Assembly: GCA_038209995.1 (NCBI GenBank)
Contig: JBBQXD010000003.1
Location: forward strand, 89,079-153,078
Length of the DNA stretch: 64,000 nt
Origin: Candidatus Limnocylindria bacterium
GTDB taxonomy: Bacteria; Chloroflexota; Limnocylindria; QHBO01
Direction: 5' to 3'
Program-made: the position numbers and the translations under genes
Shown: in pieces, positions 2,522-54,765 of the stretch
Numbering within the stretch: the stretch's first letter is position 1
How the letters are laid out: the number at the start of each line of letters is the position of its first letter
Notes under the pieces: generated by a model
The model's database searches: none
Seen by the model: only the letters and a program-made list of their open reading frames with translations
What the model was told of the DNA's origin: nothing

Positions 2522-2841
2522 GGCGGCAGCGTAGCCGACGGGGCACGTCGGCAAACTGCCAGGCCACCGCCGATCGTCCGGATTGACGGCGGGACCCGCC
2601 CGCGCCTAGAGCCCCATTCCCTCAGACACTTGGCGCAGATCTACCTGAATGACAACAAGCGTTGGATCCGCCAACAGATGCGTGAACGAAAGATCATCGT
2701 TGACATCGGTCCAACAAAGTCTACCGACTCGATCGCCAGCATCTACTATTGGATGGAGTACTCGGTCACGATGGGCTACCTGGGGGTCATCCGCGCGTGG
2801 GGATGCACCAGGCGTCGCCTCGTGAGGAGGTCGCATCGACG

Positions 2842-3315
2842 ATGAGCCGGCCGGCGAACACTCCTTTGATTTTCTCCGATGTGTGCATTCAGGCGGCGCT
2901 CTTGGCCCGGGGAGACTGGATGGGCGTCGACGAACTCATGATCGACTACGAATACATCGCGCGGTCGACGCCATCGTTCGACAGTCTCAGCTTTGGAATC
3001 GCGCGGCTGGTCGCGAACGGCTTGGTGCAGGTCCGCGATGAGCCGAGTGAATCGTTCATGATGAGAGCCACGCAACGTACGTTTCGCACCGCTACGCCCG
3101 GTGTGGGCGTGATCGATTTCGCGATTCAATTGGCCCACGAGCTCGGAGTGACCCTCGACGAAAATCGGGAGGAAGATCGTTCTCATGGACGTGTCGACGG
3201 CCTAACCTACACGGAATACCAGAAGGCGGCGGGCGCCGGCGGCGAGTGGAAACATCTCGTTGACTCGCGCCTCCCGGGGGCACGCGGGCGCGACGGGCGC
3301 CCCCGCGAGGGCTGA
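2842..3315 (+). CDS. hypothetical protein (lower-GC islet)
   Basis: ATG preceded by GAGGAGG at the correct spacing. Local GC is visibly lower than in flanking genes. No recognisable motif. Confidence 0.4.
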   Translation: MSRPANTPLIFSDVCIQAALLARGDWMGVDELMIDYEYIARSTPSFDSLSFGIARLVANGLVQVRDEPSESFMMRATQRTFRTATPGVGVIDFAIQLAHELGVTLDENREEDRSHGRVDGLTYTEYQKAAGAGGEWKHLVDSRLPGARGRDGRPREG

Positions 3316-3463
3316 TCATGGTGGCACGGAAGGGCTCGCCGTGGCCGTGGCTTGTCGGCGGCGGTGGAGCGGGGGCTCTCTGGTGGCTCGCAAAGGGACT
3401 CGCGCCACTCTGCGGCCTGGGTGCCCCCGTCTGCGCGTGGGCGCTTTGAGCCCCGGAGCCCCA

Positions 3464-4153
3464 ATGAGCAGAAGTGTCCGCATCGTCGGGAGCCCGTCGA
3501 GTTGGCTCGTGATGCTGGAATTGCTCAGCCTCGATGGGGTCAGACCGTTCTGGTCACGGCTCAGCATCCGAGTGCGCCGCCAGCGTGAGCTTCAATCGAT
3601 GCTCCGCGACATGGTGCTCAAGCTTCGCGCGGCCCATGCCCGTCGCAATCGCGCCGCGATGTCTCGTGAGATCATTGCCGGACTGGAGCGCATCCGTCAG
3701 GAGATCTCAAGTCCAGCGGCCGAATCGATCGTGCGGCTTCGTGACCTCGAGGAACGATGGATGGTGCGCCCCGGTCGTGATTGGATCGGTGCTCTGTGGC
3801 TGTACGTCTACCAGCCCCGCAGCCAAGACACGTTGTCGTCCGGCATTCGGCCACAGATCCGGCGCTTGATCAAAGCTCGACTGGCCAGTGACCTGTGGCT
3901 CGATGAGACTGCTGCTGCGCTGTTCCCCGCGAAGAGCACGTGGGACGCTGAAATCGTCGAATCTAGATTCGTGGGCGGCGGACCGGATGCAATGGCTAAC
4001 GCCCTTCGAGAGTTACTCGAAGCGAGGGCGTATGCTTCCTTGCGCCGCGCCCTCAGACAGCACCTCAAAGGGACCGAGCGAGAGGCGTTGCGATCATGGG
4101 CGGTCACGTACGCGCGTGAGGACGGGGTGCGACCGGAGTTGCCACGTCTCTGA
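3464..4153 (+). CDS. hypothetical protein (lower-GC islet)
   Basis: 229-aa ORF starting MSRSVRIVGSP and rich in Arg/Leu. No recognisable motif. The track ORF 3260..4153 is trimmed to the internal ATG. Confidence 0.4.
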   Translation: MSRSVRIVGSPSSWLVMLELLSLDGVRPFWSRLSIRVRRQRELQSMLRDMVLKLRAAHARRNRAAMSREIIAGLERIRQEISSPAAESIVRLRDLEERWMVRPGRDWIGALWLYVYQPRSQDTLSSGIRPQIRRLIKARLASDLWLDETAAALFPAKSTWDAEIVESRFVGGGPDAMANALRELLEARAYASLRRALRQHLKGTEREALRSWAVTYAREDGVRPELPRL

Positions 4154-4169
4154 ATGGTCAAGGCCCCCG

Positions 4170-4745
4170 GCCGGCGCCGCCACCTGCGCCAGCCCAAACC
4201 TCACCCACGACTCCGCCGGCCGCACCGCGACCTGGAACGGCTGGACGTTCGGGTATGACGCCGACGGCCGGATGGTGAGCGCCTGCAAGAGTCCCACCGG
4301 CGCGCCGCGCTACGACACGGTGACCTTCGCCTATGACGGCGCCGGCCATAGGCACCCAGATCAGGGCGACCTCCGCCGCGGGTGCGGTCGCCACGACCGC
4401 TTTCGGCTACGCGGGCGCCGCGATCACCTCCGAGACGCTGACCGACGCATCCCACCGTCGGGCACTGTGGTGCGGCGCTACGCCGTCGACGGCGACGGGT
4501 CGATCGTGAAGGTCAGCATCCCGGGCGGCGAACCCGAGGCCGGTGACTGCCTCGTCACCTGGAACTGCCACGGCGACGCGCTCAACCTGCCGCGCCTCAA
4601 CGCCGACGGCACCACCACCCTCGCCAACAGCTACGCCTATTCATCAGGGGTGCGCCGACGACGTTCACCGACAACGGCATCGGCGACCTCGGCTTCCGCT
4701 TCCTGTACGTCGGCCGCCACGACGTGCAGTGGGACAATCCGTTAG
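4170..4745 (+). pseudogene. RHS/YD-repeat protein remnant (frameshifted, ends in an in-frame TAG)
   Basis: YD-repeat matches: TWNGWTFGYDADGRMVSA, YDTVTFAYDGAG, VRRYAVDGDGSIVKVSIPGGE, TLANSYAYSS. Alternate frames carry further YD-like text (AFGYAGAAITSETLTD; GFRFLYVGRHDVQWDNPLGL). The frame is broken by at least two shifts and a TAG at 4743-4745. Confidence 0.55.
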
Positions 4746-4763
4746 GGCTCGGCCTGGCCTTAC

Positions 4764-5324
4764 ATGCACGCCCGCCACTACGCGCCGGCGCTGGGACGGT
4801 TCCTGCAGCCTGACCCGGCTCGGCTGGAATCGAATAGTTACGGCTATGCCCGAGAAAATCCATTGACGAGGATGGATGCCAGCGGAACGGAGAGTTGGAC
4901 ACCGAACTCCTGGGAGTGGTCCGCTTGCTTCAAGTATCCGATCGCATGCGCCAGGTGGATGCGCGCCTCCTTCCTGGCACTGGTCGCAACCAGGACCATC
5001 TCGAGCGAGCGGCAACGCAATGCCATGAGACACTGCATCTGGAACTGCCTCATGACGGAGTCAATGAGGGCCTCGTGGGCGAATCTCTGGGCATACCTGC
5101 ACGAGGCTGGCGGTCCATTCCAACCGTTGGATACGCGTGTCGACCTCCACAATAACCGCGTAGGCGTGCTGTTCGGGCAGCAGGCCGGATTCTGGTTCTC
5201 GGGTCTTCCATGGGCGGCTGGCTTTTGCGAGGGCGTATGGAGGCGGGGACGGCTCTGGTATGTGGAATACAACAGAGTGGTCCGCACGTCCCTCGGAGTT
5301 AATGTGCCCAACGGTGCGCGCTAG
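4764..5324 (+). CDS. RHS C-terminal tip: core-end motif plus variable putative toxin domain (orphan)
   Basis: Same frame as the upstream remnant. Begins within the RHS core-end consensus (Y)MHARHYAPALGRFLQPDPARLESNSYGYARENPLTRMDASG. This is followed by about 140 aa of lower-GC sequence with conserved-looking His/Asp/Asn residues (AMRHCIWNCLM, AYLHEAGGP, DTRVDLHNNRVG). Confidence 0.6.
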   Translation: MHARHYAPALGRFLQPDPARLESNSYGYARENPLTRMDASGTESWTPNSWEWSACFKYPIACARWMRASFLALVATRTISSERQRNAMRHCIWNCLMTESMRASWANLWAYLHEAGGPFQPLDTRVDLHNNRVGVLFGQQAGFWFSGLPWAAGFCEGVWRRGRLWYVEYNRVVRTSLGVNVPNGAR

Positions 5325-5343
5325 GTAAATCGGCACAAAGACG

Positions 5344-5793
5344 ATGTTGAAGCAGATCGGGCTCGACCGGATCGTCCGGGCAGTTGTTCTCGTCGAAGTC
5401 ATCGGTATCATCGTGCTGGCTGGCTCGATCTTGTTCGATCCTCCTCCCCCGTACCGCACCGACATCGAGCGAGGGGTTTGGACCCTGATCAGCATTGACG
5501 GCCACGTTCAGCCGCCACCCGCACCACAGCTTGCTTTCCGAGGCGACGGCATGACTTGGACGAGCGACTGCCAAACGATCACCGGGGATGCGGTTCGCGA
5601 CAGTGACGGATCGATGATGCTCATTGGTGGCTTTCGGGTGCTGGCTGCTCGATGTTCACCTCAGCAAGACGCCGCCGAAAGGGCGCTCTTGGACGCGCTC
5701 GCGACTACCGAAACGTGGAGCGTCGAGACTGAGGACCTCATCGTGCTCCGCGGGGGTCGACACTCCATCACGCTGGCCCGGATCCCATCCTGA
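5344..5793 (+). CDS. membrane-anchored META/HslJ-like domain protein; candidate immunity protein for the upstream RHS tip
   Basis: Starts 20 nt after the tip stop. N-terminal TM helix (IVRAVVLVEVIGIIVLAGSILF), then a META-like pattern (WTLISIDG ... GSMMLIGGFRVLAARCSPQQ ... ETWSVETEDLIVLRGG). Lower GC. Confidence 0.5.
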   Translation: MLKQIGLDRIVRAVVLVEVIGIIVLAGSILFDPPPPYRTDIERGVWTLISIDGHVQPPPAPQLAFRGDGMTWTSDCQTITGDAVRDSDGSMMLIGGFRVLAARCSPQQDAAERALLDALATTETWSVETEDLIVLRGGRHSITLARIPS

Positions 5794-5802
5794 GCTGCCA
5801 GC

Positions 5803-6243
5803 GTGGGTCGCTCCTATCCCGGACAGCGCATAACGTTGCCGGATACGGTCGGCCGCCCGCCTCGTGACGCACGCCTCTCGGGCCGTGAGGCTTGGAAGGC
5901 TGCCGCTCTGCCAACTGAGCGGCGCGTCTCGCCTGATTTGGGGCGCATAACGATCATCCTCGCCAACCCGTCGAAGCCAGAAAGGCCCACCGCGGGCACC
6001 ACGATCCAAGAGCAGACGCGACAGTGCCTCGCGAACATCGCCGCCATCCTCAAGGCGGCCAGCAGCTCGATGGAGCAGGTCGTGAGCGCCACGTTCATCC
6101 TGCGCCGGCCTGAGGAACTCGCCGGCATGAACGAGGAGTTGGCGCGCTGGTTCCCGGTCGACCCGCCGGCCCGCCAGGGCGCGAAGGACCCGCTCGAGGT
6201 CGGCGACGCCCTCATCTCGATCGCGGCCATCGCGGTGACCTGA
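5803..6243 (+). CDS. ridA: RidA/YjgF/TdcF family (reactive enamine/imine deaminase)
   Basis: Aligns by eye to RidA over EQTRQCLANIAAILKAASSSMEQVVSATFIL ... ARWFP ... PARQGAKDPLEVGDALISIAAIAV. GTG start. Confidence 0.6.
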   Translation: MGRSYPGQRITLPDTVGRPPRDARLSGREAWKAAALPTERRVSPDLGRITIILANPSKPERPTAGTTIQEQTRQCLANIAAILKAASSSMEQVVSATFILRRPEELAGMNEELARWFPVDPPARQGAKDPLEVGDALISIAAIAVT

Positions 6244-12047: not shown

Positions 12048-12950
12048 GTGACCGGCTCGCCACTCCCGCGCCCCGCGGCAGTCGTCCTCAACGCGGCCGC
12101 CGGGACCGCGACCACCGACCGCACCCGACGCATGGTGGAGCTCGTGCGCGCCGGCCTCGATGCCGACCTCGTGACGGTCGCCACCCGGGATGCGGACGAG
12201 CTGGCGGCCCTTCTCCAGGATCGGCTGGGCGGCTACCAGACGGTCATCGTCGCCGGCGGGGACGGCACCCTGAGCGTCACCTACAACGTGCTCGCCGGCT
12301 CGGCGGTCACGATCGGCTATCTGCCGGCCGGCTTCGGGAACGCCACCGCCCACCTCCTCCGCCTGCCGCGCGATCCCGAGGCGATCGCGGCCACGGTGCT
12401 CACCGGTGACGCCCGTTCTGTCGACCTGGTCCGGGTCGGCGGCCGCCTGGCACTCTTCGCCGGCACCGGCTGGGACGCCCACGTCGCCGGTCGCTACGCC
12501 GATGCCGGCGCGAAGGGGACCCGCGGCTGGCTGCGTGCCATCGGCGGCGCCGTGCCGAGCCTGTTCCGCCGCCCCATCGTGCGGCTCACCGTCGACGGCA
12601 CGGTCGCGCATGAAGGACCAATGGAGCTGCTCGTGGCATCCACGACGCCCTACTTCGGCCGCGGCCTGCTCGTGAACCCCGGGGCGCGTTCGCAGTCCGG
12701 CACGATGCGGCTGCGCGTCTACGGCGGTCCGGCCGCCATGCTTGCCCTCGAGGCCGTGCGGTGGGCAGCGCGCCGTCTTCCGGCGGCCGTCCCGGTCGAC
12801 GGTTCCGCGGCGGAGCTCGAGGTGATCGAGGCATCGGGCAGGGGCGTCCCGCTGCAGGTCGACGGTGATCGCATCGGCACCGAGCGTACCTGGCGCTTCG
12901 AGCTCGCGCCCGCCGCCGTACGTTTGATCGGGAATTGGCGGGGCGGATGA
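12048..12950 (+). CDS. diacylglycerol kinase catalytic-domain lipid kinase (YegS/DagK family)
   Basis: DAGK_cat motifs: VIVAGGDGTLSVTYNVL and IGYLPAGFGNATAH. Confidence 0.7.
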   Translation: MTGSPLPRPAAVVLNAAAGTATTDRTRRMVELVRAGLDADLVTVATRDADELAALLQDRLGGYQTVIVAGGDGTLSVTYNVLAGSAVTIGYLPAGFGNATAHLLRLPRDPEAIAATVLTGDARSVDLVRVGGRLALFAGTGWDAHVAGRYADAGAKGTRGWLRAIGGAVPSLFRRPIVRLTVDGTVAHEGPMELLVASTTPYFGRGLLVNPGARSQSGTMRLRVYGGPAAMLALEAVRWAARRLPAAVPVDGSAAELEVIEASGRGVPLQVDGDRIGTERTWRFELAPAAVRLIGNWRGG

Positions 12951-16330: not shown

Positions 16331-16370
16331 GGCCGCGCCGGCCGCGCCGGCCGCGCCGGCCGCGCCGGCC
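16331..16370. repeat. tandem 9-nt microsatellite (GGCCGCGCC) x about 4.4
   Basis: Perfect copies in the divergent intergenic region between cinA (-) and the F420 operon (+). Confidence 0.8.
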
Positions 16371-19314: not shown

Positions 19315-20090
19315 CGTCGGGCTCGCTCGAGATCCTCGCGCTGGACGGGATCCCCGAGGTCCAGGCCGGCGACGACCTGCCAGCGCTCATCGCCGCGGCG
19401 GCCGGGGCCGCCGCCATCGGTCTGTCCGACGCCGACGTCCTGGTCGTCACCCAGAAGGTGGTGAGCAAGGCGGAGGGCCGGCTCGTCGATCTCGCCACCG
19501 TCGAGCCGCGGCCATGGGCGGTCGAGTTTGGCGCCCGGTGGGGCAGGGATGCGCGGCAGGTGGAGCTCGTCCTCCGCGAGTCGGCCGAGATCGTGCGGCT
19601 CGGTCCGCACGGGCTCATCATCTGCCGCACCCATCACGGCTTCGTGTGCGCGAACGCCGGCGTCGACCTCTCGAACGTTGGCACCGGTGACGCGGCAACC
19701 CTCCTGCCGGTCGACCCCGATGCATCCGCCGCCGGGATCCGCGACGGCCTGCGCGCCCGGCTGGGCGTCGCGCCGGCGATCATCGTCAGCGACTCGTTCG
19801 GGCGGCCATGGCGGAACGGGATCGTGAACGTGGCGATTGGTGCGGCGGGCATCGAGCCGCTCCTCGACCTGCGCGGGCGGCCGGACGCGGCGGGGCGCGT
19901 CATGCGCGCCACGATCACCGCGATCGCGGATCAGCTGGCGTCCGCAGCGGATCTCGTCGGCGGCAAGGTCGCGCAGCTGCCGGTCGTCATCGTCCGCGGC
20001 TACGCATACCGGCTGGGCGACAGGGGCGCCGCCGGCGCTGCGGGTGCTGCGGCGCTCGTGATGGATCGCGCCGCGGACCTCTTCCCGTAG
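19311..20090 (+). CDS. cofE: coenzyme F420-0:L-glutamate ligase CofE (FbiB N-domain homologue)
   Basis: LEILALDGIPEVQAGDDLPALI ... VLVVTQKVVSKAEGR ... IICRTHHGFVCANAGVDLSN matches CofE family motifs. 4-nt overlap with cofC. Confidence 0.8.
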   Translation: MTSGSLEILALDGIPEVQAGDDLPALIAAAAGAAAIGLSDADVLVVTQKVVSKAEGRLVDLATVEPRPWAVEFGARWGRDARQVELVLRESAEIVRLGPHGLIICRTHHGFVCANAGVDLSNVGTGDAATLLPVDPDASAAGIRDGLRARLGVAPAIIVSDSFGRPWRNGIVNVAIGAAGIEPLLDLRGRPDAAGRVMRATITAIADQLASAADLVGGKVAQLPVVIVRGYAYRLGDRGAAGAAGAAALVMDRAADLFP

Positions 20091-20170
20091 GTCGAGCACG
20101 CGTCTTCGAGGAGGGGCTCCACCGCGGACGGACGGTGGCCATCGGTCTACCAGGGACGCTCAGCATCCCT

Positions 20171-20259
20171 TCGTGACAGCGTGCCTCACATGCGCCATGT
20201 GCAGCTCGTGACAGCGTGCCTCACATGCGCCGGGTGCAGCATGTGCGTCACGAGCGACC
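20171..20259. repeat. tandem palindromic repeat element (2 x 35 nt unit plus partial), GTGAC-N7-(G/C)TCAC family
   Basis: tcgtgacagcgtgcctcacatgcgcc(a/g)(t/g)gtgcagc occurs twice in tandem, then atgtgcgtcacgagcgacc. Contains the internal palindrome CACATGCGCCATGTG. Related to the repeat at 53778-53889. Confidence 0.7.
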
Positions 20260-20293
20260 TACCCGCGGCGCGTGGACCCGCCCGGGAGGAGGG

Positions 20294-20629
20294 TCAGTTC
20301 GGCTGAAGGAAGAGGGCGACGATCTCGCCACCCTCCACGCGGAAGTTCGCCTCGACGTTCATCGGCGGCACGCCGGGCCGCATGACGGTCACCTCGGCGA
20401 TGTAGCTGCTGCCCATGTTGCGGCTGTCGTTGGTGAACATCCGGAAGCCGTCGCCGGCCCGGACGAACCAGCCGCCGACCTTGTCGCGACCGCGCAGGTT
20501 CGTCCGCTCGTCGGAGCCGGGCACGCTGATGCCGAGCACGGCATGCTCGGCGAAGAGCTCGACGGCCTTCTCGCGGCGGTCGTCGTTGATGAGCTCGAGG
20601 AACAGGTCGACGGTCTCGGTGGCTCCCAT
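20294..20629 (-). CDS. NTF2-like / SnoaL-like small protein
   Basis: 111 aa in a cone-shaped alpha+beta family pattern (VDLFLELINDDRREKAVELFAEHAVL ... EANFRVEGGEIVALF). Confidence 0.5.
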   Translation of the reverse strand: MGATETVDLFLELINDDRREKAVELFAEHAVLGISVPGSDERTNLRGRDKVGGWFVRAGDGFRMFTNDSRNMGSSYIAEVTVMRPGVPPMNVEANFRVEGGEIVALFLQPN

Positions 20630-48610: not shown

Positions 48611-49534
48611 GTGGCAGCGCGCGCGGGTTGGCTGACGCCGGCCGTCTTCCTCACCCTGGGCCTCATCTGGGGCTCGTCGTTCCTGTGGATCAAGATCGCG
48701 CTGCGCGAGATCGGGCCGGCGACTCTCGTCGCGGAGCGGATGACGCTCGGTGCGATCGGGATGGTCGGCTACCTTGCGCTCATCCGACAGCGCCTGCCGC
48801 GAACGGCGCGTGAGCTGGCGCCGCTCGCCGTCGTCGGCCTCATCAACGCCGGCCTGCCGATCTTCCTCATCAGCTGGGGCGAGGTCCACGTGGACTCCGG
48901 CACCGCCGCGGTCCTGAACTCGCTCGTCCCGCTGTTCAGCCTGCTCATCGCCGGAGTCTGGCTGCGCACCGAGCCGGTGACGGCGCTCCGCGTCACCGGC
49001 CTGATCCTCGGCTTCGGTGGCGCCGCGATCCTCGCCAGCCGCGAGCTGTCACTCACCGGGGATCCGCTGGGCCTCGTCGGCGCGGTCGCGGTCGTGCTGG
49101 CGGCAGGCTCCTACGCGCTGGGCGCGAGCTACGCGCGGCATCGGATCACGACCACCCATCGGTATGTCGTCGCCGGCGGGACGCTGGTCTTCGCCGCGAT
49201 CTACCTGTGGGTGCTCGCCCTCATCAGCGAGTGGCCGATCGGCGTGCCGGTGCGCGTGGATGGGATCGTCGCCGTGCTGTGGCTCGGCCTCCTCGGCAGC
49301 TTCGTGGCCTACCTGTGCTACTTCTTCCTCATCGAGCACCTTGGCGCGACTCTGGCGAGCATGGTCACCTATCTCTTCCCGGTCGTGGGCGTGGCCCTGG
49401 GGACGACCTTCCTGAACGAGGCATTCGACATTCGGATGGCGATCGGCACCGTGCTCGTGCTGCTCGGGATCGGGGTGGTCAGCCTTCGCTATGATCCGCG
49501 CGTGAGCCGCGAACCTCGTGGGGCCGGCGAGTGA
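48611..49534 (+). CDS. DMT superfamily transporter (EamA-like, 10 TM)
   Basis: Two EamA repeats ([15 protein letters not shown] ...; [23 protein letters not shown]). Confidence 0.7.
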
Positions 49535-51639
49535 GTGACGCCGGCGACCGCGAACCGCGGCCGGATGACGAGCAGCCGGCCGAAACCGATTGGCCGGCGG
49601 CCGATATGACTCCCCGCTCGCCCGACCCCGACCCACCGTCCGCCGATGACGACTGGGCATGGCCACGTCGCGACCTGCCTCGGGAAGAGGAGGCGGAAGA
49701 CTGGCGCCCCGCGGAGCCGTGGCGCGACAACCCCTCCTGGAACGACACCCCCAGCGACGCCCCGTTGAACCGCGATCCCGAGCCATTCTGGGTACGCGAG
49801 CCGGAGCTGCCGGAACCGCATTCGGCACCGTCCTGGGAGCGCGAGCCGGAGCCGCCGAAACCGGTAGCGGCGCCGTTGTGGGAACCCGAGCCGGAACCAG
49901 ACCCTGAGCCAGAGCCCGAACCTGAGCCCGAACCAGAACCTGAGCCCGAACCAGAACCGGAGCATGCGCCTGCGCCTGCGCCCGAGCCGGAACCGGAACC
50001 ACCGCCGGAGCCCGAGCCGGAACCGGAACCCGAACCCGAACCGGAACCAGAACCCGAGCCCAAACTGGAACCAGCGCCCGAACCGGAAGCCGAGCCAGAG
50101 CCGGAGGGCGCGCCGGAGCCGGTTGCGGAACCAGCGCCCGAGGCTCCGGTAGAGCCTGAGTCCGCGGCACCACCGACACTGGCGGTAGCTGGCGAGCCCG
50201 CGCCCGAAACTGCCGCTGAACCCGAGCCCACGCCACATGAGCCGGTGGCCCCGGAAGAGGCACCGCCCAAGCGGCCCACGTGGGAGGCGGACGTCGAATC
50301 GAAGCCGGGCTTCGCTGAACCAGCACCGGAAGCAGCAGCCGCCCATCCGACAGCGGCGCCCGCCCCGTCTCCGGTGGTCGTGCCGCCCGTCCCCGTGGAG
50401 GTAGAGGCCGCCACCCAGGCTCCCTGGTCAGCGCCGGTGGAGGACATGCCGGCAATCGAGGGTGGCCACCCGCGGATGACCTGGGATCGGCGCCGGATGG
50501 GAGAGCGCCGCAGGCCGACGACCTCGGAGCAGGCCGTGCCGTGGCTCATCGGGATCGTCCTGGCGATGGCCGGCATCGTGCTCGTCCTCCTTGCCCTCAT
50601 CTACACCTCCGAGAACGGGCACCTTACGACGGTAAGCGGGTCGCCGTCGGCGGGGTCGTCGATCGTCGTCGTGCCGAGTGAAGGCAGTGGCGCGGCGGCG
50701 GCATCCGCCTCGCCGACCGACGGCGCGAGCACGACGGCCAGTCCATCGGCCCTCGGGCCGACGTACGGCGCCCTGGAGATGATCTACCTCAGCCGCACCA
50801 TCGCCTCGGCGCCGATCTACGTGTTCCGCCGTGACTTCAGCGTCACCCAGGAGGCAGAGACCCTCGCCCGGGCCGACCAGGGCGTCGAGCAATTTGCCTG
50901 GGCGCCCGACGGCCGCATCGGCGCGGGGCTCATCTCCGGCCGCGTCCTGGCGCTCCAGCCCGGACACGCTGCCCGCGCGCTCGGAGACGGCATGGTCGAC
51001 ATCTCGTTCAGCACCGACTCGCGGACCGTGTACGCGGTCCGTGTCACCCGCAATGGCGCGAACGACAAGGCCGACGTCGTCGCGGTCGAGTGGGCAACCG
51101 GAGCCCAGCGCACCGTCGGGTCGGTGACCTATCCACATCCCCAGGTAGTGGCCGACCCGGCCCTGAAGGAGGCGCAGTTCATCGACGATGGCGGGCTGGT
51201 GCGGCTCTACCCGACGGTCGACAACCGCCTCGTGCTCTGGATCCTCGGCGCGCCGTCGACCTACCTGGTAAGCGCCGCTGGCGGCTCGCTGGCGCCGATC
51301 GCCGGCCTGCCGAAGCTGGTCTCGCCGGACGACCAGTGGACGGTGCAGGTCAAGGAGTCCAAGGGCACGACGACGCTGACGCTCGCCGACCGCGCCGGAA
51401 GCGCGCGTGCCGCGACGAGCATCACCGGCCTCGTCAGCCACATTCGTTGGGCGCCGAACGGCTCGGAGGTCGCGTTCACGCTCGGGCATACCGGCCAGAA
51501 CGGTGGCGTTGTCCAGAATCTCTACGTCTGGGACCTCGTCGACGCCAAGGCGCCGATCGAGATCACGAGCAACGGCGCCTCCTTCGGCGCCGAATGGCGT
51601 GGTGCCGCGGTAAGGTGGGTCAGTGAGCCCGCGTCCTGA
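49531..51639 (+). CDS. single-pass membrane protein with an N-terminal acidic (Glu-Pro)n low-complexity region and a C-terminal beta-propeller-like (TolB/PD40-like) domain
   Basis: About 35 EP dipeptide repeats with Trp-containing W-x-x-P-E-P motifs (aa 1-330). Basic stretch plus TM ([24 protein letters not shown]). Then about 340 aa with repeated beta-strand-rich blocks. ATGA overlap with the upstream EamA gene. Confidence 0.6.
49890..50100. repeat. hexanucleotide tandem repeat tract (GARCCN)n inside the CDS, encoding (EP)n
   Basis: gagcccgaaccagaacctgagcccgaacc ... . Near-perfect 6-nt periodicity over about 210 nt. Confidence 0.7.
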
Positions 51640-51961: not shown

Positions 51962-52785
51962 CGACGCGGTTCCGCGAGCCGTTCACGCTCGCGCTCGGCG
52001 GGGGCGGGGCGCGCGGCTGGGCGCACATCGGCGTGGCGCGCGCCCTCGAATCGGCCGCGCTGCGCCCGGCATCGATCGTGGGCACCAGCATGGGCGCCGT
52101 CGTCGGGGCCGGCCTCGCCGCCGGGTACCCGACCTCCCGCATCGAGGAGGTCGCGCGCCGCGTGCCGGTCTATCGGCTCATCGGCCGCCGGGGGCGCTAC
52201 GCGCTCTTCGACAGCCGGCCGGTGCTCGAGGTGATGGGCCGCGAGCTCGGCAATCCGCGGATCGAGGAGCTCGGGCTGCCGTTCGCGATCACGACCTTCG
52301 ACCTCGTGACCGGCTCGACGATCGCGATTCGCGAGGGCGATCTCGTCGACGCGCTGGCGCGCAGCATCGCGGTGCCGCTCTTCTTCCCGCCGACGCACGA
52401 CGACGACGGCGTGTGGTGCGACGCCGGACCGTGGGAGGCGGTGCCGATCAGCGTGGCCCGCGATCTGTGGCCCGGGCGGCCGGTGATGGGCGTGCGGGTG
52501 GACGCCCCGAAGCCATCGCTGCTGGGCAGTCCACTCGGCTCGCGCGTGCTGCGCGCCGTGGCGGGGCGCCTCGGCGAGGCGGGCGAGGCGCTCACCGCGC
52601 GGCGGTACGTCGCGCTCCTCGCGGCGCGCTGGGCGGACCCGGTCCACGAGGAGCCGGCCGACCTCCTCATCGAGCCGAAGCTCGGCATGACGAGCGCGTG
52701 GCAGTTCAGCCGCGTCGGACCGATGGTGGAGCGCGGCGAGCGCGACGCCCGGGCCGCGCTGCGGGAGGCATCGGTCCATGGCTGA
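51958..52785 (+). CDS. patatin-like phospholipase
   Basis: Oxyanion hole GGGGARG and nucleophile elbow GTSMG, with a later DGG/DAG catalytic Asp (WCDAG). ATGA overlap with DUF971. Confidence 0.75.
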   Translation: MTTRFREPFTLALGGGGARGWAHIGVARALESAALRPASIVGTSMGAVVGAGLAAGYPTSRIEEVARRVPVYRLIGRRGRYALFDSRPVLEVMGRELGNPRIEELGLPFAITTFDLVTGSTIAIREGDLVDALARSIAVPLFFPPTHDDDGVWCDAGPWEAVPISVARDLWPGRPVMGVRVDAPKPSLLGSPLGSRVLRAVAGRLGEAGEALTARRYVALLAARWADPVHEEPADLLIEPKLGMTSAWQFSRVGPMVERGERDARAALREASVHG

Positions 52786-53734
52786 TGGTGGTGGGCTCCT
52801 CCTCGTCCATGCCCATCCCGACGACGAGGCGATGGGCACCGGCGGCCTGATCGCCACGACCGTCGATGCCGGGCGACGGGTCGATCTCGTCACCTGCACC
52901 GATGGCGCCGAGGGCGAGATCCACGACCCGACCCTCGACCACGACGAGGCCCGCCCCCGGCTGGCGGCGATCCGGCGCGAGGAGCTCGCCTGCTCGCTCG
53001 ACGCCCTCGGCGCGGGGCGCGTGAACCTGCACCTGCTCGGCTACCGCGACTCCGGGATGATGGGCACCGAGGCCAACGAGCACCCCGACTCGTTCTGGAA
53101 GTCCGACCTCGACGAGGCGATCGGGCGCGTGGTGCGCATCGTTCGTGAGGTGCGGCCGGCGGTGATGGTCGGCTACGACAGCAAAGGCGGGTACGGGCAC
53201 CCCGATCACATCAATGCACACCGCGTGGCGGTGGGGGCGTTCGAGGCGGCCGCTGACGGGTCGCGCTACCCGGAGGCCGGGTCCCCCCACGAGGTCGCGA
53301 AGCTCTACGAGACCGCGTTCGCCCGCGAGGCCCGGTTCCGCCTCATGACGGCCATGAAGGAGCGTGGCATCACGCTGCCATGGGACTTCGACGAGGCCAT
53401 CGAGCAGTACGCCGCCGACGAGCTCAACCCGTCCAATGCCGCCCCGGTTCAGCAGGCTGGGGAGCAGCTCGCGGCGGGGGAGGAGGTTACGGGGTTCGGC
53501 ACCTCGGAGGCGGACATCTCGACGACCGTCGACGTCTCGGCGGTCGCCGGTCGGAAACGCGCCTGCATGGCCTGCCACCGCACCCAGGCCCAGGATCTGG
53601 GCTGGCTGCTGGCCCTGCCCGACGATCTCGCTGCCGGCGCGCTCAGCCCCGAGACGTTCGTGCTCCGTCGCTGGCCCGGCCACGAGCCGATCGACCCTGG
53701 CTTGCGCGAGACGCGCGTCTTCGCGGGGCTGTAG
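52778..53734 (+). CDS. PIG-L/LmbE family N-acetylglucosaminyl deacetylase (MshB/Mca-like)
   Basis: Hallmark LLVHAHPDDE, then HPDH (GYGHPDHINAH) zinc ligands. 8-nt overlap with the patatin gene. Confidence 0.75.
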   Translation: MADGGGLLLVHAHPDDEAMGTGGLIATTVDAGRRVDLVTCTDGAEGEIHDPTLDHDEARPRLAAIRREELACSLDALGAGRVNLHLLGYRDSGMMGTEANEHPDSFWKSDLDEAIGRVVRIVREVRPAVMVGYDSKGGYGHPDHINAHRVAVGAFEAAADGSRYPEAGSPHEVAKLYETAFAREARFRLMTAMKERGITLPWDFDEAIEQYAADELNPSNAAPVQQAGEQLAAGEEVTGFGTSEADISTTVDVSAVAGRKRACMACHRTQAQDLGWLLALPDDLAAGALSPETFVLRRWPGHEPIDPGLRETRVFAGL

Positions 53735-53777
53735 CGTGCGTGGGGGAGTTCCTAGCGCCGGTAGGCCGGCGGGCCCT

Positions 53778-53889
53778 GTCAGCCGTATGTCGTGACAGTG
53801 TGCGTCACATGCTGCGCGTGACAGCGTGCGTCAGCCGTATGTCGTGACAGTGTGCGTCACATGCTGCACGTGACAGCGTGCGTCACGAG
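53778..53889. repeat. tandem palindromic repeat element (2 x 52 nt unit plus partial), GTGAC-N7-GTCAC family
   Basis: gtcagccgtatgtcgtgacagtgtgcgtcacatgctgc(g/a)cgtgacagcgtgc occurs twice, then gtcacgag. Shares the core cgtgacagcgtgc(g/c)tcac ... gtgcgtcacgag with the repeat at 20171-20259. Confidence 0.7.
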
Positions 53890-53981
53890 GGAAGCCCGAC
53901 AGCAGGAAGAGGCCGCCTGGACGCTCGCATCCCGAGTCCACCGGCGTATGCTCGGAGACCCATGGAGGAGATGACTGACTG

Positions 53982-54638
53982 ATGTCCGGCCGCTCCATCG
54001 GGCTGTCGCCCGAGCTCCACGATTACCTCATGCGCGTCGGGGTGCGCGAGCCGGCCGTCCTCGAGGGCCTGCGGACCGATACCGCCTCGCATCCCCAGGC
54101 GCAGATGCAGATCGCGCCCGAGGAAGGTGCCCTGCTCGCGCTCCTCGCGCGTCTCACCGGCGCGCGGCGCATCCTGGAGATCGGCACCTTCACCGGTTAC
54201 AGCAGCACGGCGATGGCGCTGGCGCTGCCGCCGGGTGGCGCGGTGGTGTGCTGCGACATCAGCGAAGAGTTCACCGCTCGGGCGCGGCAGGCGTGGCGCG
54301 ACGCCGGGGTCGACGAGCGCGTCGAGCTGCGCATCGGTCCGGCCGTGGAGACCCTCGAGGGGCTGCTCGCCGAAGGCGTGCCGTTCGACATGGCCTTCAT
54401 CGACGCCGACAAGCCGAACTACGGCGCCTACTACGAGGCCTGCGTGGCCCTCGTGCGGCCTGGCGGCCTGATCTGCATCGACAACGTCCTGTGGTCGGGA
54501 CGGGTGGCCGACGCGGCCGACACCGATGCCTCGACCAAGGCGATCCGGGCCATTAACGCGCGGATCGCGTCCGACGAGCGGGTCGATGTCGCGATGGTGC
54601 CGATCGCCGACGGCCTGACCCTGGCCCGCGTCCGCTGA
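53982..54638 (+). CDS. class I SAM-dependent O-methyltransferase (caffeoyl-CoA OMT-like)
   Basis: SAM motif ILEIGTFTGYSS, then DFAFIDADK-type (DMAFIDADKPNY) and DNVLW segments. Confidence 0.75.
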   Translation: MSGRSIGLSPELHDYLMRVGVREPAVLEGLRTDTASHPQAQMQIAPEEGALLALLARLTGARRILEIGTFTGYSSTAMALALPPGGAVVCCDISEEFTARARQAWRDAGVDERVELRIGPAVETLEGLLAEGVPFDMAFIDADKPNYGAYYEACVALVRPGGLICIDNVLWSGRVADAADTDASTKAIRAINARIASDERVDVAMVPIADGLTLARVR

Positions 54639-54765
54639 CCGACCGCGCCGTCTGGCCCCCTCGCGGTGCGGCCGCTCGTGGTGTGGCCCATCCTCGCCGA
54701 CGCTGCGGATCGATGGGGGCACGCCGCTCTACGTCACCGACCTCGATGGCCCGCGACGCCTGAGT

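Follow-up and report, generated by a model that had tools for sequence, protein, structure and literature searches.

The window, as the whole 64-kb stretch of DNA analysed here is called, has a G+C content of 70.7% and encodes proteins whose named homologues belong to MAGs of 'Candidatus Limnocylindria' and other Chloroflexota. Towards its right end, a short tandem array (locus 2) separates a PIG-L deacetylase gene (52778–53734) from an O-methyltransferase (OMT) gene (53982–54638), with patatin and GBBH-like genes lying upstream. The array begins 43 nt past the PIG-L stop codon (53734) and ends 92 nt before the OMT ATG (53982). It consists of two 52-nt units (53778–53829 and 53830–53881) that differ at a single position (G at 53816, A at 53868), and is closed by GTCACGAG at 53882–53889. 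TRF describes it by a period of 52, 2.1 copies, 98% matches and a score of 209, beneath which a 26-nt period is apparent. At this finer scale the array resolves into four subunits of 26 nt, each of the form GTCA(S)-N9-GTGAC-AG(Y)GTGC, among which two types alternate, one with the spacer CCGTATGTC and the other with ATGCTGC(G/A)C. Since the spacers of the 52-nt units are as near-identical as the rest, the array appears to be the product of a recent duplication.

The palindrome GTGAC-N7-GTCAC occurs three times in the window, all within the locus-2 array, compared with 0.11 expected occurrences, and none of 100 shuffled sequences reached three; the remaining palindromic unit of the array, the second, terminates in GTCAG. 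When up to three mismatches to GTGACAGYGTGCGTCA are tolerated, seven matches are found in the window against 1.7 expected, six of which fall within this array and a related one near 20.2 kb (locus 1). Two independent short-read contigs (SRR19962013) match the window exactly, the match ending at 53807 and resuming at 53928, a break located at the repeat. Thus, the insertion junction at locus 2 and its junction with PIG-L are real and do not reflect an assembly chimera, and the repeat is seen to interrupt short-read (de Bruijn) assemblies. These data bear out the descriptive part of the original prediction, which had proposed a genuine GTGAC-N7-GTCAC repeat with a 52-nt unit duplicated but for one nucleotide (g/a), situated about 95 nt before OMT and after the patatin/PIG-L genes, and sharing its tail with a second locus; indeed, GTGCGTCACGAG is found exactly at both 20243–20254 and 53878–53889. 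Coordinates of the array, its units and the related features are collected in Table 1.

Table 1. Repeat elements and associated features in the 64-kb window.
Feature	Position	Strand	Basis
DNA absent from L123, L124 and L126, between the PIG-L stop and the short spacer	53735..53940	+	alignment A1, gene tables
Whole locus-2 element, nested palindrome CTGTCAGCC-N-TCGTGAC (array) GTCACGAGG-N-CGACAG	53776..53902	+	family-frame regex match
Tandem array at locus 2, two 52-nt units and GTCACGAG tail	53778..53889	+	TRF, unit comparison, covariance-model matches of 23-49 bits
Palindromic unit 1, GTGACAGTGTGCGTCAC	53792..53808	+	motif search
Palindromic unit 2, GTGACAGCGTGCGTCAG; outermost pair broken by last base	53818..53834	+	motif search
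Palindromic unit 3, GTGACAGTGTGCGTCAC	53844..53860	+	motif search
Palindromic unit 4, GTGACAGCGTGCGTCAC; tail extends it to CGTGAC...GTCACG	53870..53886	+	motif search
Locus 1: left arm CTCAGCATCCCTTCGTGAC, two 35-nt units (GTGACAGCGTGCCTCAC, longer spacer), third unit (8-nt deletion) ending GTGCGTCACGAG	20159..20254	+	TRF, covariance model 36-40 bits
Possible partial third copy, GCGTGCGTCACGAGG, matching the final 15 nt of the locus-2 array and one adjacent base	5858..5872	-	exact match

The gene context of locus 2 in related genomes is telling. The distance from the PIG-L stop to the OMT start is 3 nt in L123, 1 nt in L124 and 19 nt in L126 (whose PIG-L proteins are 84%, 78% and 78% identical to that of the window, respectively), against 247 nt in the window, and in all three relatives the two genes are closely coupled within a single operon. 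In alignment A1, residues 53941–53961 of the window correspond to the 19-nt PIG-L/OMT spacer of L126 (CCGGCGTAT...), and the preceding 206 nt are therefore a lineage-specific insert, 127 nt of which are contributed by the repeat element. Searches for relatives of the other 41 nt (left) and 38 nt (right) of the insert detected none, and neither an insertion boundary nor a terminal or target-site duplication is evident at locus 2. On the strength of these alignments, the repeat was most likely inserted in the present lineage between genes that directly abut in its relatives. The suggestion that the elements are REP-like and mark operon boundaries stands in kind in its first part, to which we return below, and is only partly right in its second, since PIG-L and OMT form one operon in relatives and the element was inserted inside it.

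Other features of this neighbourhood are recorded here for completeness. The OMT gene of the window has its own ribosome-binding site, GGAGGAG, which also forms the first codons of an upstream ORF of six codons (53962–53982, ATGGAGGAGATGACTGACTGA) whose stop overlaps the OMT start (TGATG, to 53984). A scan for sigma-70-like promoter consensus sequences found none. Between OMT and a histidine-phosphatase gene the window has 127 nt (54639–54765), and an Orn/DAP/Arg decarboxylase gene found at this place in L123 (6389–7543), L124 (11687–12754) and L126 (11696–12763) is missing. Further upstream, dense overlapping tandem repeats of GAGCCG/CCGGAA type (periods 6, 18, 24, 36 and 45) at 49788–50143 lie inside a 702-aa ORF (49531–51639) that has no Pfam match, and probably encode a low-complexity Pro/Glu-rich linker.

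Locus 1 follows the F420 genes cofD-cofC-cofE (cofE stop at 20090), and its units beginning at 20173 and 20208 are the only other strong mismatch-tolerant matches in the window. It is bounded on the other side by the 3' end of a SnoaL-like gene (20294–20629, minus strand), which is supported as a real gene by a GC3 of 0.95, compared with 0.68 for an overlapping plus-strand ORF, and by its conservation in relatives; locus 1 therefore occupies a convergent 3'/3' gap. An orthologous copy with a two-unit core, CGCGACAGGGTGCGTCAC-ttgttgca-TGTGACAGCGTGCGTCACGAAGG, is present between cofE and the SnoaL-like gene of L131 (10824–10870), a genome whose cofE is 82% identical. Intergenic DNA surrounding the two orthologous copies can no longer be aligned between the window and L131, and the repeat core is kept.

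The same site has a varied history in other genomes. In L129 (10811–12097) and L130 (10806–12113) a Ser/Thr kinase gene is found at the cofE/SnoaL site and the repeat is absent, the window (20091–20293) and L131 being without the kinase. Past the kinase, the gap of L129 orthologous to locus 1 (12100–12340) holds a different palindromic element that looks MITE-like, with 13-nt terminal inverted repeats (GATTCATCGGTAC / GTATCGATGAATC) and an inner hairpin (GGGCTACGTACCGA...TCGGTACGTGCGTAGCCC). In L131 (10001–11020), cofE is called as a protein of 339 aa that overlaps the next gene, with a normal stop context (TTCCCGTAG) about 165 nt after the 253-aa stop position, and a nearby Peptidase_M6 gene is split in two; both anomalies probably stem from indel errors in a long-read assembly.

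The tail GTGCGTCACGAG recurs exactly for a third time on the minus strand at 5861–5872, as part of the possible partial copy listed in Table 1, for which the chance expectation of its 15-mer in the window, calculated from base composition, is ~6e-4. The covariance model of the unit (see below) misses this copy, as it consists of the right half alone. A 10-nt direct repeat, CGTTATGCGC (5943–5952 and 5826–5835), brackets the 107 nt in which it lies on the minus strand, and the bracketed segment also includes a tRNA-like 5' fragment (GCTCAGTTGGCAGAGCG...CTTCCAA) resembling the D-arm and anticodon arm of Gly-TCC, although neither ARAGORN nor Rfam called a tRNA in 5826–5952. Judged by its sequence, the region looks like a small insertion with target duplication. 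In the adjoining 2551–5751 region the G+C content falls to 0.51 (150-nt windows) compared to 0.71 overall, and the ORFs are without Pfam match except for one DUF6973, so that the region is possibly an acquired island. A perfect 9-nt tandem repeat of another kind (GGCCGCGCC, 4.4 copies, 16331–16370) occupies the divergent gap between CinA-like and PNPOx-like genes.

When all 64 kb were searched with a covariance model of the unit, with filters switched off and a cut-off of E < 0.01, only loci 1 and 2 were retrieved; beyond the window the model identified copies in L058, L074, L131, L007 and L115, as well as a relic in L129. Two of these, L058 and L074, are contigs of the Chloroflexia MAG CAWGUL01 and carry true relatives of the repeat. 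In L058 two units 26 nt apart end in the same tail as locus 2 and are 87% identical over 63 nt to 53842–53904, the homology reaching 53904. The copy in L074 is a single unit, TTCGTGACAGCGTGCGTCACGAAC, to which the copy of the JGI contig L115 is identical in 25 of 25 nt, and that of L007, a contig of an 'Actinoplanes' MAG, reads CTGTCAG-N5-CGTGACAGCGTGCGTCAG. Four further samples of the same species (L132–L135) have the two-unit element at the L058 site, with three substitutions in 73 nt, and at this site L136, a relative at 81% identity, has a 41-nt short form, CTGTCATCGACTGCTCGTG-CAG-CACGAAGAGGTGCTGACAG. A short form or relic in L129 (18.7 bits, E = 0.003) lies between divergent luciferase-like and PNPOx genes; a regular-expression search for short-form copies in the window found none.

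Wider scans contributed few additional members. A scan of a genome collection of 596 Gb with the 17-mer CGTGACAGYGTGCSTCA returned 112 rows, against ~280 expected by chance, nearly all of them single matches from unrelated taxa in coding-like contexts, the family being represented by L058, L074 and probably L007. The metagenome scan with the exact terminal unit gave four matches, of which only L115 is plausible, and missed the real JGI copies L132–L134 that differ by one base. Five matches in a viral scan look like chance, blastn against plasmid and phage collections gave no match, and a literature search for the motif returned unrelated primer sequences only.

The copies thus collected have a consistent distribution. 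All those with interpretable context lie between ORFs: three occupy convergent gaps (locus 1, L131 and L074, representing two independent sites), three lie where both neighbours share a strand, and one is in a divergent gap. The flanking pairs (F420 ligase/SnoaL-like, PIG-L/OMT, hypothetical/threonine dehydratase, ABC-2 permease/GH38) are functionally unrelated. Among non-orthologous copies identity reaches 89–94% over 43–57 nt, compared to only ~80% for orthologous proteins of these genomes, and comparisons of copies from different sites span 89–100% over 19–57 nt. The family occupies at least five non-orthologous intergenic sites in several genomes. Its density amounts to two full loci and one fragment in the 64-kb window and at least two loci in CAWGUL01, and ~110 kb of syntenic DNA from relatives hold one full copy and one relic, suggesting that, unlike classical REPs, the family may be low-copy. 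Neighbours scanned within a few kb of each copy included no transposase or recombinase.

All copies conform to a nested frame, captured by the regular expression CTGTCA(GCA)-N7/8-TCGTG[core]CACGA(G/A)-N7/8-(T/C)GACAG, which at locus 2 extends to outer arms of 21 nt (53776–53796 and 53882–53902) that are 71% complementary. Within this frame the core is assembled head-to-tail from a module, the palindromic GTGAC-AGCGTGC-GTCAC followed by a spacer. The core is reduced to 'CAG' in L136, contains one unit in L074 and L115, two in L058, L132–L135 and L131, and four at locus 2, while at locus 1 two 35-nt units are joined by one with an 8-nt deletion. Units are spaced by 26 nt at locus 2 and 35 nt at locus 1, and the distance between the TCGTG and CACGA half-sites varies among family members from as little as 3 nt to over 90 nt. 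Overall, units measure 17–24 nt, the short form 41 nt and the arrays 73–127 nt. Some orthologous sites have retained their copy while its core changed in whole-unit steps.

Every element examined folds end to end as a single hairpin, a potential that follows from each directly repeated unit being itself palindromic. The 127-nt locus-2 element forms one long hairpin of -55.4 kcal/mol with a z-score of only -1.0, and relative to dinucleotide shuffles neither of the window loci folds better than expected (z from +0.1 to -1.9). In L058 and L132 near-perfect hairpins of ~80 nt are formed (z = -4.0 to -5.0), as stable as which none of 200 shuffles folded. The stem of the unit is 5 bp long, or 8–9 bp in the single-unit copies L074 and L115, and encloses a 7-nt loop. 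In an alignment of units (A2), 14 of 34 columns are invariant and three further columns are at least 90% conserved, and the loop AGCGTGC is conserved as strongly as the stem. Concomitantly, a covariation test on the unit stem found no compensatory pairs, all four types of variant (T>C, G>C, C>G, and A>G in L132) disrupting or weakening pairs. Conservation therefore operates at the level of sequence, which fits young or homogenised copies, or sequence-specific recognition, and gives no evidence for a structure-selected RNA. The orientation of the inner loop differs between loci, and in L058 the loop is inverted relative to the frame in comparison with the window copies. When L058 (3258–3330) is compared to the orthologous L136 (260–300), the arms of ~18 nt match better flipped (0.87 identity) than in the same orientation (0.74), tentatively suggesting that the palindrome at this site may invert in place.

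Taken together, these findings make it probable that locus 2 represents one member of a REP/BIME-like, lineage-specific repeat family of Limnocylindria-like Chloroflexota, whose copies are small, palindromic and dispersed among intergenic sites. Its placement agrees with the published distribution of REPs, which are described as mostly located between unidirectional and convergent ORFs (PMC3733652), and this agreement supports the REP-like reading; tandem clusters of near-identical REPINs are likewise known (PMC3116915). New sites would be reached by some form of transposition or templated insertion by a factor acting in trans, and the number of core units would change by slipped-strand or hairpin-mediated duplication. 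Transcription of the element might yield a stable intercistronic or 3'-terminal RNA hairpin that protects the upstream mRNA or attenuates read-through, by analogy with REPs, for which stabilisation of upstream mRNA and attenuation of read-through by the transcribed hairpin are described (PMC3733652, PMC12306157). At locus 2, such a hairpin would uncouple OMT expression from that of patatin/PIG-L. The analysis provides a first account of a family of dispersed palindromic repeats in the Limnocylindria-like Chloroflexota, a soil and freshwater group that is abundant but uncultivated, and locus 2 offers a clear case of such an element splitting a translationally coupled gene pair. The repeat could also serve as a variable-copy (VNTR-like) strain marker.

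Other explanations have been considered. A neutral local minisatellite or palindrome, prone to slippage, devoid of function or mobility, and resembling the other loci only through shared ancestry, is unlikely: local slippage alone is insufficient to account for an element lying inside inserted DNA that three relatives lack, the same 40–60-nt consensus including the frame arms recurs at at least five unrelated sites, and the core has been kept though surrounding intergenic DNA diverged beyond alignment. In agreement with such a minisatellite are the variation in copy number and spacer length among loci, the lack of covariation and, for the window copies, of a folding signal, and the low copy density in relatives.

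It is improbable, too, that the repeats were left as a scar by, or serve as a recognition site for, some other mobile or recombination system (IS or MITE ends or target, or a structure-specific recombinase) linked to nearby gene losses. Such a link would fit the Ser/Thr kinase gene that L129 and L130 have in place of the locus-1 element of the window and L131, the Orn/DAP decarboxylase gene missing just downstream of OMT in the window, and the apparently flipped frame of L136 at the L058 site and the differing inner-loop orientations. REPs are known targets of IS elements (PMC1525189). However, examination of window regions and neighbouring genes revealed no transposase or recombinase gene, locus 2 shows no evident target-site duplication, and the evidence for flipping comes from arms of ~18 nt.

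A related and similarly doubtful proposal holds that the family, far from being a passive REP, is the recognition structure of a structure-specific DNA enzyme, or a self-propagating palindrome, and would represent a RAYT-independent mobile or recombinogenic class. The expansion of the hairpin from its centre, the possible flip in place and the inverted core of L058 would all fit this proposal, as would the persistence of copies at orthologous sites (at ~80% protein identity) together with gene-sized indels nearby (kinase, decarboxylase).

Selection as a structured regulatory RNA or an unconventional, U-tract-less terminator is still harder to sustain. The predominantly 3'-terminal or intercistronic positions, the strong hairpins of L058 and L132, and the ability of GCGUGC loops to self-pair via G-U on the forward strand only are compatible with it. 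Against it stand the lack of any Rfam match at gathering or relaxed thresholds, of a terminator-like site with a T-run and of compensatory changes, as well as an orientation to same-strand genes that is not fixed, the locus-2 units of the window being sense and those of L058 antisense.

The least probable reading, and one of the two offered by the original prediction, is that of an operator array through which a dimeric transcription factor binding the GTGAC-N7-GTCAC palindromes would co-regulate OMT and the genes near locus 1; palindrome arms of 5–7 bp, ~12 bp centre to centre and repeated upstream of OMT, an 18-mer whose conservation between the window and L131 far exceeds that of the intergenic DNA around it, and one relic in a divergent promoter region (L129) speak for it, but are outweighed by copies between convergent 3' ends where no promoter is expected (locus 1, L131, L074), the absence of the OMT-proximal site in L123, L124 and L126, where OMT has no separate upstream region, functionally unrelated flanking genes, a geometry that varies in both unit spacing (26 versus 35 nt) and half-site distance, a central 7 nt whose invariance is atypical of operator spacers, near-identical spacers in the 52-nt units that indicate recent duplication and not half-site selection, and the failure of the sigma-70-like scan to find a promoter. 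A transcription-factor operator would be expected to lie upstream of the genes it regulates, with fixed geometry and conservation at orthologous promoters, an expectation that the convergent 3'/3' copies, the absence at OMT in three relatives and the variable spacing do not bear out, and a CRP/FNR-type site (TGTGA-N6-TCACA) in particular was rejected for its mismatched spacing. The repeat should accordingly be left out of motif-based regulon predictions.

Comparison with known repeat classes places the family more closely. MIRUs of mycobacteria are tandem units of ~50 nt that lie inside operons between closely spaced genes, vary in copy number by lineage and feature small translationally coupled ORFs. 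Locus 2 resembles them in its tandem ~50-nt units, its position within an operon between otherwise closely spaced genes and its variable copy number, but its units are strongly palindromic and no reading frame crosses the array. Specifically, TGA codons at 53793, 53819 and 53845 stop all three frames, the 26-nt period placing the TGA of each unit in successive frames, so that the coupled-ORF feature of MIRUs is absent and a MIRU-like minisatellite was rejected. CRISPR, characterised by unique spacers of similar length (usually 26–72 nt), was rejected since the palindromes are 17 nt long and the 9-nt spacers are of only two alternating types. An intrinsic terminator was rejected because no terminator-like site exists at either array, where the tails are GAGGGAAGCC and GAGCGACC. 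Rfam gave no match in the window at gathering scores, and only sub-threshold, chance-level matches around locus 2 at relaxed thresholds; a tRNA search found nothing.

BIMEs are mosaics of alternating motif types that form clusters with variable copy number. With REP/BIME elements of Enterobacteria and Pseudomonas the family shares short imperfect palindromes, a common consensus and an extragenic location mostly after genes, in convergent or same-strand gaps, and with BIME-2 and REPIN tandem clusters it shares a mosaic of alternating sub-units and variable copy number. It differs in that its units are arranged head-to-tail whereas those of BIMEs alternate in orientation, in its low density (2–3 loci per 64 kb and fewer in relatives), and in its additional outer frame CTGTCA...GACAG, within which it grows from the centre. 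REPINs of Pseudomonas fluorescens SBW25 likewise form a hairpin of the whole element from repeated palindromic units, and REPIN 'ordered clusters' likewise contain near-identical tandem copies, spacers included, whose presence or absence differs between related genomes (PMC3116915). However, a REPIN is a pair of inverted REPs mobilised by a RAYT, and a strict REPIN was rejected since the present units are direct repeats, head-to-tail and 26 or 35 nt apart.

The GTAG/CGTC-tagged REPs (PMC3733652) are intergenic and have a stem-loop size similar to that of the present family, with its stems of 8–9 bp in L074 and L115 and its 7-nt loop, and the GTAG-23 repeats of Thermomicrobium roseum, itself a member of the Chloroflexota, cluster at few loci, as do the repeats described here. 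Membership in these superfamilies was nonetheless rejected: the units run from (T)CGTGAC to GTCACGA(G/A), with neither an unpaired GTAG or CGTC terminal tag nor a CCA-like tail. CGTC occurs only inside GTGCGTCAC, where it spans loop and stem, and the GTAG at 53730–53733, 45 nt from the array, belongs to the context of the PIG-L stop codon. The head-to-tail arrangement is also described as negligible among known tagged REP families (PMC3733652). General REP criteria (PMC12306157) are an extragenic position, a palindromic stem-loop, short length (~14–40 nt), a common consensus and many copies per genome. The present family agrees with them in location, palindromy, length and consensus, and as to copies, two full loci and one fragment are seen in 64 kb and at least two loci in CAWGUL01. 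The family has not been described before but is of an ordinary type, that of small dispersed palindromic intergenic repeats, and is mildly unusual among them in its nested frame with tandem expansion from the centre outwards, its possible flipping in place, for which the indications are tentative, and its co-occurrence with gene-sized indels.
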